A DNA stretch of 59,962 bases from a virus. Taxonomy: Duplodnaviria > Caudoviricetes. Below, one piece after another: positions 1-1,981 of this stretch (positions are counted from its first letter, which is position 1; each line of letters opens with the position of its first letter). The DNA lies in IMG/VR virus record IMGVR_UViG_3300044796_000261, positions 1-59,962 of that record. The stretch is one strand, 5' to 3'. The position numbers and the translations under genes are program-made. The notes beneath the pieces are model-generated. The model made no database searches. It saw only the letters and a program-made list of their open reading frames with translations, and was not told the DNA's origin.

Positions 1-258
1 GTCGAGGCATCCAAGGCTCCTCGCAGCCATTGCGACTCCAAGTGCGTCGATTGTCTCGCTCTGCACATGCCGCGTCGAGGCATCCAAGGCTCCTCGCAGC
101 CATTGCGACATGAGGCCGGCCGGTTCGCGACGGCCGTGGGGGCATCGTGTCGAGGCATCCAAGGCTCCTCGCAGCCATTGCGACCCATCGCCCACGCCAT
201 CGACGCCGCCCGCGTCGAGGTAGTCGAGGCATCCAAGGCTCCTCGCAGCCATTGCGAC
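1..258 (-). CRISPR. CRISPR array, cas-proximal part (4 repeats, 3 spacers); continues across the circular junction
   Basis: Identical 36-nt repeat GTCGAGGCATCCAAGGCTCCTCGCAGCCATTGCGAC (+ strand) at 1-36, 74-109, 149-184 and 223-258. Unique spacers of 37, 39 and 38 nt. Strand inferred from the adjacent cas gene. Confidence 0.98.
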
Positions 259-277
259 GTGTCTCGCACGACCCGAA

Positions 278-1981
278 TCATTCCGCCACCTTGGCGGCCG
301 ATTCGCGAGCGGAGGCTATTTCCTCGCTCTTCGCTCGCTTCTTTTCCTTTCTCCGCTCCCAGGCGTTGCCTCTCAAAGTACCGCTTCCACTGACGTTTTC
401 CTCCGTGCGAGCGCCCCCGCCGATCCACGCGTCGATCGCGCGCTCGCACCACGACCGCTCCTCGCTCTCGCTGAGCCGCGCCGCCGGAATCCACGGGTGC
501 TCGATCGCGTCCGCACCGAAGACGAGCCTCAGCGCGCCCCGAAGCTCGCTCGGCCCCGCCACAAATCGCACGTCGCTCTCCTCGCCGAAGCGCGCCTCGC
601 GCGACAGATCGCGATCCTCGAGGATCACGGTCCGGTACCGCCTCCCCCACTCGGCCGCCAGCACGCGGTATTGTTCGCGTCGGCGTCGGAGAGCCTGACC
701 TCGTGAGCCGTCTGCGTACTGCCAGAGGTGCCGGTCGCGGTGGACCCACTCGGCGAGCATCGCCAGCGCCTTCGGGCAGCACGTCGCGTGCTTCGCAGAC
801 CACGACTCGTACAGCCGGTGGAATCGATCGAGCGAGAGCCAGAGGTGCATCGTGGCCTTCGCCTTCGCGAGCTCGGGCGGGAGGGGCCCGGTCATCGCGC
901 GCGCGAGCTTCGGGGCCATGTCGTTTCGGATCAGGTCGCGCACGGCGCGAATGTCCGCCGACTTGCAGATCCCCTTGATTTCGCGCTCTGAGAGCATCAC
1001 CTCGCCGGTGCGGCCCTCGTGGTCGCGCCATGTGCCGACGCGGATCGTGCCGGCGACCGGAGTCCACTCGACCTCGAGCGCAACGGCCCCCTCGAGCGAG
1101 CGGTCGAGACTGCGAGCGGCCGGAGCCGGATCGTCCACCGTGATCTCGCACGACCACACCGCATGGGTCGCCTCGCGTCGGCACGAGACTCGTACCCACT
1201 TCCACCGTGCCGCGTCGGGGACCTGGCGGTGCATGCGCACCGGGAACTTCGCCCACACGGGGTCTCGGCCCTCGGATCCCACGCGCAGCCAGAGCACGCG
1301 CCAGGGGTGGCCGGTTTGCTTCCGATCGGCGAATCGGTCGGGCGCGAGCCGCACGCGCGGGTCCGTGCCCGCGAGCACATCGCGGGTCGCCAGTCCCCCC
1401 TGGATCTGGATCCCGATCTGCCCGACGTAGACGCCGGAGCCGATGCGCGTCTCCTCCGCCCGCACGAATTTCGGGTCACTCGGCTCGAGACCCCCCCCCT
1501 CGTAGAGGGGCATCCTGCGGACCTGATCGGACGAGGCCTCGATCGTGAGGTAGGACCCCCAAAACGTCTCGGTCAGGTGGCGCGCGTCGCCGCGGATCGA
1601 CTTGTCGAGCAGCGCGATCCTCCCCGTCTCGTAGAGCGGCGAGTAGGCGTAGCGGAGCTGACGACGGCGCCCGTCGCCCTCGTTCCACTCGACCGGAGCC
1701 TCCCAGTGGCCGCCCGCGCACCGCGCGGCGTCGAGCGTCTCTCGGCGGATCTTGCTGAGCGCAGTCAGCGCGGCTTTCCGCGTTGACTTCGTGGCCGCCT
1801 TGAGCGACGCCTCGGCGTCGCGCACCTCGGGTGTGTCGAGGATCGCGCGCAGTGCGTGGCGACGTCCCCGCTCGACCGCAACGAGGTCGTTGCGGTAGTC
1901 GTGCGCGGCGCGAACCTGAGCGCGCTGGACGGACTCGCCCTCGACCGGGCCCTTGCAGCCGAATTGGTAGACGCGGATCAT
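278..1981 (-). CDS. cas12m: Cas12m (type V-U1/V-M)-like RNA-guided DNA-binding effector, probably nuclease-dead
   Basis: 567 aa, abuts the array, RBS GAGGAG. N-terminus VYQFG..P....QVRAAHDYRNDLVAVE, then P.W..FPVRMHRQVP, RuvC-I-like GAVALEVEW, helix RDRHLWQY...RRRREQYRVLA and RuvC-II VILEDRDL all resemble Cas12m/TnpB-derived effectors. Confidence 0.82.
   Translation of the reverse strand: MIRVYQFGCKGPVEGESVQRAQVRAAHDYRNDLVAVERGRRHALRAILDTPEVRDAEASLKAATKSTRKAALTALSKIRRETLDAARCAGGHWEAPVEWNEGDGRRRQLRYAYSPLYETGRIALLDKSIRGDARHLTETFWGSYLTIEASSDQVRRMPLYEGGGLEPSDPKFVRAEETRIGSGVYVGQIGIQIQGGLATRDVLAGTDPRVRLAPDRFADRKQTGHPWRVLWLRVGSEGRDPVWAKFPVRMHRQVPDAARWKWVRVSCRREATHAVWSCEITVDDPAPAARSLDRSLEGAVALEVEWTPVAGTIRVGTWRDHEGRTGEVMLSEREIKGICKSADIRAVRDLIRNDMAPKLARAMTGPLPPELAKAKATMHLWLSLDRFHRLYESWSAKHATCCPKALAMLAEWVHRDRHLWQYADGSRGQALRRRREQYRVLAAEWGRRYRTVILEDRDLSREARFGEESDVRFVAGPSELRGALRLVFGADAIEHPWIPAARLSESEERSWCERAIDAWIGGGARTEENVSGSGTLRGNAWERRKEKKRAKSEEIASARESAAKVAE

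Follow-up and report, generated by a model that had tools for sequence, protein, structure and literature searches.

Cas12m effectors (type V-M, formerly V-U1) bind DNA and do not cut it in all cases tested, whether their active site reads D-E-D, H-D-D or N-D-D (PMC11013384, PMC10442227 and the PmCas12m preprint). DED, HDD and NDD triads were described by Bigelyte et al. 2024 (PMC11013384), and the published clades carry HEK/HQK, HDD, DED/NED or DND triads together with an HCCC zinc finger (PMC10442227). V-U systems in bacteria typically come without adaptation genes, a feature that is thus not a phage speciality (Bigelyte 2024, PMC11013384). From phages, MvCas12m of myxophage MV-1, with 610 amino acids and an eight-spacer array, was called the first Cas12m in a September 2026 preprint (bioRxiv 10.64898/2026.09.14.751636). 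Here we describe a CRISPR locus in the virus record IMGVR_UViG_3300044796_000261 of IMG/VR, positions 1 to 59,962, the whole of which we call the window. Its source contig is a tailed phage from peat soil, and its single effector is a Cas12m relative whose clade, on the alignments presented below, lacks both the TNB zinc ribbon and the canonical RuvC site.

The locus spans the two ends of the window and consists of the following parts.

278..1981, minus strand: cas12m-like effector gene, encoding WED, a coiled-coil REC and a RuvC-like domain but lacking the TNB zinc ribbon
259..277, minus strand: 19-nt gap between the stop codon and the gene-proximal repeat
1..258, minus strand: gene-proximal part of the CRISPR array, with repeats at 223-258, 149-184, 74-109 and 1-36
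185-222, 110-148 and 37-73: spacers of the gene-proximal part; the crRNA (CRISPR RNA) sense is the minus strand
59691..59835, minus strand: gene-distal part of the CRISPR array, with repeats at 59765-59800 and 59691-59726 and spacers at 59801-59835 and 59727-59764
59836..59962, no strand: terminal overlap, identical to 1-127; an assembly duplicate, not an additional array
1982..1993, minus strand: intergenic 12 nt holding a GAGGAG Shine-Dalgarno sequence for the effector; the fcl-like gene lies upstream on the same strand

The effector open reading frame (ORF) encodes 567 amino acids plus the stop codon and is intact, with a strong signal in third-position G+C content (GC3). The 36-nt repeat, GTCGAGGCATCCAAGGCTCCTCGCAGCCATTGCGAC on the plus strand, was found in eight copies without a mismatch, starting at plus-strand positions 1, 74, 149, 223, 59691, 59765, 59836 and 59909; the reversed pattern, used as a control, gave no matches, and no further copies were present in the window at up to 12 mismatches. 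Since the last 127 nt of the window are identical to the first 127 nt, the copies at 59836 and 59909 are those at 1 and 74, which leaves an array of six identical repeats and five spacers (38, 35, 37, 39 and 38 nt) and 59,835 unique bases. The overlap contains a repeat, a 37-nt spacer, a second repeat and 18 nt of the next spacer, and because it includes unique spacer sequence it points to a circular or terminally redundant assembly, not to a repeat artefact. An earlier reading of the window, made from the sequence only, had already described the 567-aa frame 19 nt from six identical repeats, the array that wraps to 59691 and the 12-nt distance to the fcl-like gene, all of which were borne out by the repeat search, the overlap and the gene coordinates. 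The 19-nt gap is too short for a separate promoter, and the array is thus probably transcribed together with the effector gene or from within the 3' end of that gene; scans for sigma-70 promoters and intrinsic terminators around the locus gave nothing exceeding shuffled sequences. In crRNA sense, the last seven bases of the repeat recur as a 7-nt copy in the gene-proximal spacer, after its first two bases (214-222 versus 223-229), which could be due to slipped integration or to chance.

Neither Pfam nor NCBIfam yielded a match to the effector protein. The PADLOC Cas12u1 profile, in contrast, covered residues 2-504 (E=5.7e-55), and a phmmer search of PDB sequences returned 23vw_A, entitled 'CRISPR-associated DNA-binding protein Cas12m' (E=1.1e-31). 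When the PDB was searched with a profile of 40 clade members, 23vw_A (2.7e-64) was matched along with Cas12m2 (4e-28), GoCas12m 8pm4 (4.4e-27) and UnCas12m4a (1.4e-17). An AlphaFold2 model built from this 40-member alignment (predicted local distance difference test 88.5, predicted template modelling score 0.78, low only at 525-538) shows the Cas12m-like bilobed fold, with WED, the REC1/REC2 coiled coil and RuvC with a helical insertion. The top four Foldseek matches to this model in the PDB were the four Cas12m entries (E=1e-21 to 2e-19; template modelling (TM) score 0.59-0.68), whereas Cas12f and TnpB appeared only from E=1e-7 onward, with a TM score of about 0.3. Superposition with VIA-align of model residues 1-522 on residues 3-604 of 8pm4_A (GoCas12m) gave Z 20.9 and a root-mean-square deviation of 3.3 over 474 residues; the range over Cas12m structures was Z 20.2-20.9 with 437-474 residues, against Z 16.8 for TnpB. 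Thus hidden Markov model, PDB sequence search and fold all identify the effector as a relative of Cas12m, in agreement with the sequence-only reading, and the Cas12/TnpB fold that such an assignment presupposes is present.

Two other identities were considered and rejected. Cas12f (V-F) and TnpB proteins have 400-550 amino acids, a TNB zinc finger, a long trans-activating CRISPR RNA (tracrRNA) or single guide RNA (sgRNA), or an omega RNA, and an intact DED triad. The PADLOC Cas12f profile does match the effector (2.7e-48), but the fold match is much weaker, the zinc finger is missing and a handle made of the repeat alone is supported. TldR was set aside on the presence of a six-repeat CRISPR array and on the nearest structures, which are those of Cas12m (Z 20.9) and not of TnpB (Z 16.8).

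We collected 120 homologous proteins, comprising P0001-P0111, which match at E<=1e-69 with 35-72% identity and form 111 clusters when grouped at 90% identity and about 35 when grouped at 50%, and P0112-P0120, with about 30% identity. PF07282, the Cas12f1-like TNB domain, was detected in seven of the nine proteins of the distant group, and no Pfam domain was detected in P0001-P0111. The alignment of the distant group displays CxxCG...CxxCG...WDQDxNA, that is, a zinc ribbon and the third RuvC motif, both of which are absent from the window's clade. An hhalign comparison of the clade with seven canonical relatives ran end to end (probability 100, 525 columns), and a 27-column deletion in the clade falls exactly over the CxxCG...CxxCG zinc ribbon. 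An exhaustive profile search of 1.84 billion representatives found 3,708 relatives at E<=1e-3 and 2,084 at <=1e-30, with a fall in score after rank 35; the zinc-ribbon and DxDx[ND]A motifs occur in none of these 35 top representatives and in 90 and 86, respectively, of the next 115. A FastTree phylogeny of the 120 sequences recovered the TNB-less clade as monophyletic against the D-E-zinc outgroup (support 0.999). Judged from these alignments, the TNB domain, which in Cas12m is a zinc finger (HCCC or CCCC) inserted in RuvC, is deleted in the window's clade. This loss and the non-canonical RuvC site are the effector's distinctive feature, which the sequence-only reading had missed.

The first RuvC position (RuvC-I) is occupied by E in 94 and by D in 8 of the 120 proteins (E303 in the window protein). 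At RuvC-II, in a column that aligns with D485 of Cas12m2, the residues are S in 61, P in 25, D in 21 and E in 9 of the 120 (E455 in the window protein). The window protein and its closest subclade, which has E with D, keep acids at both positions: P0001 has the pair E,E, while E,D is found in P0002, P0003, P0073 and 12 of 14 sister sequences. The canonical RuvC-III motif (DxDxNAA) is absent in the clade, and the candidates for the third position are the acids at 505-508, E513 and D517. All of them lie on the last RuvC helix, where 505-508 form an acidic patch and positions 513 and 517 are acidic in 104 and 92 of 111 sequences, respectively. Bacterial RuvC structures align over model residues 297-527 (VIA-align, Z 8-9), so that helix 511-520 belongs to the RuvC fold. 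The clade has a tail of its own, W-C-E-R...GGAR...NAW-x-RKAKK, with a conserved basic part (NAW-x-RKAKK; basic tail 538-567 in the window protein), and the 40-sequence alignment as a whole contains 31 invariant residues and many near-invariant ones. The combination of these RuvC residues with a missing TNB matches none of the Cas12m triad and zinc-finger types described in the two surveys cited at the outset.

The arrays of relatives are located directly downstream of the effector gene. Their 36-nt repeats, once oriented like the gene, are recognisably homologous, each with GAC as its last three bases. In the cryo-electron microscopy structure of PmCas12m, the crRNA forms two helices, -28..-26 with -15..-17 and -23..-20 with -3..-6 (PmCas12m preprint). 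We placed these helices on 17 repeats from the window and its relatives, read in gene sense, and found 87.6% of the cells paired versus 68.6% in shuffles. The covariation score was 0.536 versus 0.192 in shuffles; it was reached by 0/500, and slid registers gave at most 0.154. Helix 2 was 98.8% paired, with compensatory changes in four of five pairs. In helix 1 the first three pairs covary, and an added fourth pair, unpaired in 11 of the 17 repeats, is unsupported. The pseudoknot register of the window's family equals that of PmCas12m. The window's crRNAs are thus read from the minus strand, with a pseudoknotted repeat handle followed by the guide. The claim of the sequence-only reading that no tracrRNA is needed stands, but on different grounds: the covarying Cas12m pseudoknot is formed by the repeat on its own, and the lack of room upstream of the gene is not the reason.

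We found clade members encoded on two viral contigs (L009 and L010; 45% identity) and on 18 metagenome contigs (35-46%). A scan of 185,579 species-representative genomes, which used a single peptide pattern and is not exhaustive, yielded one clade locus (L022), on a 3.3-kb contig binned to a metagenome-assembled genome (MAG) of Acidimicrobiales. An array follows right after the gene in 15 of the 19 non-viral clade loci; three of the four array-less loci have less than 160 nt downstream, and the fourth (L028) has 1,301 nt and no array. A clean repeat of at least 24 nt ending in GAC was recovered from eleven loci, with which L009 and L010 agree, and the gene-to-array gap in the relatives is 22-127 nt (19 nt in the window). 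The gene-array unit is therefore kept across loci of 35-72% identity. The genes around it are not conserved (ThyX, kinases, methylases, ORFans); those that Pfam names are phage-like (ThyX, dATP/dGTP diphosphohydrolase, thymidylate kinase, dCMP deaminase, C5 methylase, DnaA-C HTH), and most ORFs have no family. The TNB-bearing distant relatives (23-30% identity) occur on viral contigs (L011-L021) that reach 194 kb, with arrays in six of 11, so canonical zinc-ribbon Cas12m is also common in phages.

The arrays of relatives differ completely from one another and contain up to 22 spacers. Loci L035 and L036 have effector genes that are 100% identical over 1,560 nt and six spacers in common in the same order, but the array of L036 is longer by one spacer, located gene-proximally; the distal ends of the arrays of L034 and L036 carry degenerate repeats. 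This polarity, one event, is that expected of leader-proximal acquisition. In L026, a 35-nt spacer that is present twice in the array (2773-2807 and 3114-3148) matches the locus's own effector gene over 33 of 33 nt (1265-1297), on the coding strand and over the conserved PLYDDDGLTPSDP motif. An enzyme able to cut would be unlikely to tolerate such a match, subject to its requirement for a protospacer-adjacent motif (PAM). The L026 array also shows duplicated spacer blocks, pointing to internal recombination. On the 94-kb viral contig of L010, a 72-nt orphan copy (100% identical; 1814-1885) of one spacer and one repeat sits apart from the main array, 7.7 kb upstream of it, and such a lone repeat unit could yield a guide encoded by the sequence beside it.

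Genes for adaptation were absent wherever we looked. In the window, no Cas1, Cas2, Cas4 or Cas6 family was found by Pfam among the 76 ORFs or by PADLOC among 57 ORFs (19 structural ORFs at 28574-47508 were left out), and six-frame searches for Cas1 (PF01867) and Cas2 (PF09827) were negative, with positive results in control genomes. In relatives, six-frame Cas1/Cas2 searches of four related viral records were negative, and Pfam found no Cas1, Cas2 or Cas4 among 134 neighbouring ORFs from nine clade loci. The sequence-only reading was therefore right that the phage lacks cas1, cas2, cas4 and cas6.

We also searched for targets of the five spacers, and no credible protospacer was found in the phage itself, GenBank phages, PLSDB plasmids, five related viral records and 370 kb of retrieved loci; the search did not cover IMG/VR or metagenomes. 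Self-targeting was rejected, as the longest exact match that blastn-short found elsewhere in the phage was 13 nt, no more than expected by chance. Array halves compared by blastn with GenBank phages and PLSDB gave either no hits or hits at E=0.06-3 and 81-85% identity that crossed spacer-repeat borders. In the related viral records, the best hit (83% over 35 nt) reached into the repeat, and the same spacer had other GC-rich hits, so it was considered compositional. An all-versus-all comparison of 120 unique spacers, from 14 related arrays and the window, with the 370 kb of loci gave a best hit to the window of 24 nt with a gap (E=0.003), which is not credible; hits of 'spacers' 19 and 20 of L034 were mis-parsed degenerate repeats, and a hit in L010 was the orphan spacer-repeat copy and not a target. 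Nor was the exact repeat found at any other locus in IMG/VR. As to the host, the region of the IS1595 element (see below) has only ~69% identity to alphaproteobacterial plasmids and is uninformative, and neither the Acidimicrobiales MAG bin of L022 nor P0089, from a MAG labelled Labilithrix, fixes it.

The phage itself was seen again at >=99% identity in peat metagenomes of at least three further studies. One metatranscriptome library contained contigs that match parts of the effector, fcl and gmd genes with 0 mismatches, a weak hint of transcription of the effector region, given that DNA can be present in such libraries.

Our combined findings make it probable that the locus is a working, adaptation-free system of the V-M type, in which the TNB-less effector binds guide-matched DNA without cutting it and silences or blocks competing mobile elements. 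This minimal type V-M-like locus consists of one effector gene and, behind it on the same (minus) strand, an array of five spacers. The array transcript would be converted into crRNAs with a repeat-derived 5' pseudoknot handle of ~30-36 nt and a 3' guide, with no tracrRNA. The effector descends from Cas12m within a separate, largely phage-borne clade that has no TNB zinc ribbon and a non-canonical RuvC, and would bind PAM-flanked double-stranded DNA complementary to the guide, leaving it uncut. Once bound, it may keep competing mobile elements from being transcribed or replicated (superinfection exclusion). The spacers would come from outside the phage's own gene set. The roadblock or repressor action put forward by the sequence-only reading is plausible; for the acquisition in trans from a host Cas1-Cas2 that it also proposed, the one related observation is the polarised spacer gain of L036. 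The analyses above show the anatomy of the locus, the family and fold of the effector, its TNB loss, the strand and structure of the crRNA, the constancy of the gene-array unit and the lack of adaptation genes. We infer binding without cutting because the tested Cas12m proteins behave uniformly, the TNB is lost, RuvC-II is unconstrained and the self-match of L026 is tolerated; what kind of DNA is targeted and how spacers are acquired are likewise inferred. More tentatively, and with less confidence than doubt, we suggest that a phage-restricted Cas12m lineage of ~520-570 amino acids could have remained an RNA-guided DNA binder without TNB or canonical triad, and that its arrays could grow gene-proximally without Cas1/Cas2, either by hijacking host adaptation machinery (with a repeat unrelated to that of the host) or by Cas1-independent spacer gain.

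Several observations weigh against binding-only immunity. No protospacer was found, and hence no PAM, target class or role is shown. Five of the 13 related viral loci, all of them distant and TNB-bearing, have no detected array, the polarised spacer gain comes from a single pair of loci, and the evidence from the RNA library consists of contigs only, none of which spans the array. Deletion of the TNB region (551-578) markedly reduced or abolished the activity of PmCas12m, according to the preprint, and by analogy a TNB-less effector might be impaired, unless the basic tail NAW-x-RKAKK compensates. Moreover, acids are kept at E303, E455 and on the last RuvC helix (505-508, E513, D517), through which catalysis on RNA or DNA is conceivable.

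The last point is the basis of one alternative, that of an active nuclease whose working metal site would be made up of E303, E455 and one acid of the last RuvC helix (E507/E508, E513 or D517) and which would cut rival DNA as CasPhi and Cas-lambda do. The window protein and the subclade nearest to it indeed keep the acids at RuvC-I and RuvC-II, conservation extends to E513 and D517, and the RuvC fold is complete, with bacterial RuvC structures aligned over 297-527 (Z 8-9). However, S or P at RuvC-II in 86 of the 120 proteins indicates that there is no catalytic constraint across the clade. The deleted TNB is the domain that loads substrate in Cas12 and TnpB nucleases, and a nuclease is hard to reconcile with a spacer of L026 that perfectly matches its own gene over 33 nt. 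Furthermore, Cas12m with an intact D-E-D triad is still non-cutting (PMC11013384), and conversion of HDD to DED did not restore cutting (PMC10442227). We thus regard cleavage as improbable. It also appears unlikely to us that the system is a gene regulator rather than a defence, with guides that repress host genes (for example for surface polysaccharides) or phage genes, as prophage TldR does on host flagellin. Such a role would fit the position of the locus within same-strand GDP-sugar, aminotransferase, acetyltransferase, methyltransferase and glycosyltransferase genes, and it has a precedent in TldR, a prophage-borne, nuclease-dead TnpB relative with zinc finger (ZnF)/RuvC loss that is paired with a surface-antigen gene (bioRxiv 10.1101/2023.11.30.569447); the L026 spacer against its own effector gene could likewise be read as autoregulation. 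Yet the phage genome has no match to its own spacers (13 nt at best), the neighbouring genes are not conserved among relatives, and wholly different arrays with up to 22 spacers and a polarised gain fit immunity better than fixed regulation.

A final alternative, that the phage acquired a Cas12m locus of which a decaying, non-functional remnant is left, has in its favour the loss of a domain that is needed in PmCas12m (PmCas12m preprint), the lack of targets found and the small number of spacers, five. It is opposed by the 111 clusters at 90% identity with 31 residues invariant in the 40-sequence alignment, the intact ORF with its strong GC3 signal, the six identical repeats, the compensatory changes in the repeat pseudoknot and the persistence of the gene-array unit across loci of 35-72% identity. 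Purifying selection and expression with crRNA production, which would both speak against decay, are suggested by the present data, and we consider decay very improbable.

The remainder of the window is that of a tailed phage. We called 76 ORFs by GC3 contrast and annotated them with Pfam and PHROGs, which revealed head and packaging genes (large terminase, Mu-type portal, S49 protease, gpT-type major head protein), tail genes (sheath, tube, tape measure, baseplate J, tail spike) and others (primase-helicase, helicase, an ERF/YqaJ recombination module, methyltransferases). The sequence-only reading took the genome to be complete, which the 127-nt overlap and the full hallmark gene set make probable but do not prove, as the IMG/VR class of the record is 'linear' and the CheckV completeness estimate is 63%. 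The CRISPR locus is found inside an accessory block transcribed entirely from the minus strand (1994-3984 and 54831-59457), which contains the genes for GDP-mannose dehydratase and the fcl-like epimerase, the CRISPR locus itself, a 68-aa ORF, and genes for a DegT aminotransferase, a hexapeptide acyltransferase, a methyltransferase and a glycosyltransferase-like protein. This sugar-nucleotide block is likely a surface-polysaccharide (seroconversion) module, and its association with the CRISPR locus is not kept in relatives. The genes that flank the locus directly are the following.

1994-2905, minus strand: upstream co-directional NAD-dependent epimerase (GDP-fucose-synthase-like)
2902-3984, minus strand: upstream co-directional GDP-mannose 4,6-dehydratase
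59412-59615, minus strand: downstream co-directional 68-aa ORF past the array (no family)
58312-59457, minus strand: downstream co-directional DegT-type aminotransferase

The 68-aa ORF has a CxxCGG motif and lower G+C. We considered it as a split TNB and rejected this, since it belongs to no Pfam family and has no counterpart in related loci (best E=0.37). Elsewhere the phage encodes a separate 373-aa TnpB (15414-16535, minus strand) with OrfB_IS605 and a TNB zinc ribbon (PADLOC Cas12f profile E=3.6e-49), so that one phage genome carries two different relatives of RNA-guided nucleases, TnpB and the Cas12m-like effector. An IS1595-family transposase is present at 18046-19113 (plus strand). A 443-aa pentapeptide-repeat protein (13336-14667, plus strand; Pfam E=3.9e-57) has a possible role in counter-defence, as proteins of this type can mimic DNA. 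A DUF5131 protein (24703-25551, plus strand) matches the PADLOC candidate-defence models PDC-M41B and PDC-M30B (E ~1e-90), and a DEDDh exonuclease in the ERF/YqaJ module (22386-23081, plus strand) matches the PADLOC 'CAS-associated DEDDh' model (E=1.7e-23); neither gene adjoins the CRISPR locus.

If the effector indeed binds DNA under RNA guidance, the TNB would be dispensable for this activity in the Cas12m scaffold, and base and epigenome editing, for which such proteins are sought, would gain a CRISPR protein that is smaller and non-cutting by nature and uses a short crRNA. Both canonical and TNB-less systems of the Cas12m type are common on phage contigs, whereas the literature treats Cas12m as bacterial, bar one 2026 preprint. 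With multi-spacer arrays, at least one polarised gain and no adaptation genes in clade genomes, spacer acquisition by orphan arrays becomes testable in a defined phage-host setting.

Among more distant systems, the locus resembles CasPhi (Cas12j), Cas-lambda and the 'Cas12 hacker' (Cas12p-TrxA) in being a compact phage type V effector with an array and no adaptation module, but these three are active nucleases of unrelated Cas12 branches (Foldseek E ~2e-4 and TM 0.18-0.19 for Cas-lambda, E ~1.5e-5 for Cas12p). The Cas12 hacker, which needs an sgRNA and host thioredoxin, was rejected as a close relative at that distance. Cas12k (V-K) is likewise naturally nuclease-inactive and only binds DNA, but it works with Tn7-like transposition proteins and a tracrRNA, none of which is present here, and its structural similarity is low (VIA-align Z 9-11). 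TldR shares a TnpB/Cas12 fold, the loss of the ZnF/RuvC C-terminus and carriage by phages or prophages (bioRxiv 10.1101/2023.11.30.569447), and by analogy it is a precedent for this evolutionary route. For TldR, RNA-guided DNA binding was shown experimentally; it differs in its single guide derived from omega RNA, its one conserved host promoter and its descent from TnpB (bioRxiv 10.1101/2023.11.30.569447), as opposed to a multi-spacer array with turnover and descent from Cas12m.

Phage CRISPR systems without adaptation modules were known before the MvCas12m preprint, and given that preprint a phage-borne Cas12m with an array is no longer new. MvCas12m is like the window system in being encoded by a phage beside an array; cas1, cas2, cas4 and a tracrRNA are missing there as well, and protospacers were not found either (bioRxiv 10.64898/2026.09.14.751636). 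Unlike the window's clade, it is reported in the same preprint to keep D305, E463 and D555, that is, the canonical type, and by length and motifs, compared from its description only, it resembles the TNB-bearing P0112-P0120 and L011-L021. A TNB-less Cas12m lineage with an E-x-acidic RuvC was not found in the literature covered, which did not extend to supplementary tables that could include members (such as the 134 variants of Table S1, PMC11013384). Cas12m of type V-M (MmCas12m2, GoCas12m and PmCas12m; PDB 8hhl, 8pm4 and 23vw) shares with the window system the fold and the domain order of WED, REC with coiled coil and RuvC with a large helical insertion. Also common to both are the 36-nt repeat with an identical pseudoknot register, the use of crRNA only, an array directly downstream of the gene, the absence of adaptation genes and the small size. 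The window's clade differs in having neither the TNB zinc ribbon (the 27-column deletion) nor the DxDxNAA of RuvC-III, and in having Glu at RuvC-I, where the published clades have H, D or N (PMC10442227), together with a variable RuvC-II. Its tail is clade-specific, its proteins have ~520-590 amino acids compared with about 600, and it occurs almost only on phage-like or unbinned contigs. Within the literature covered, the window effector would belong to an undescribed branch of Cas12m that is TNB-less and non-canonical in its RuvC site.

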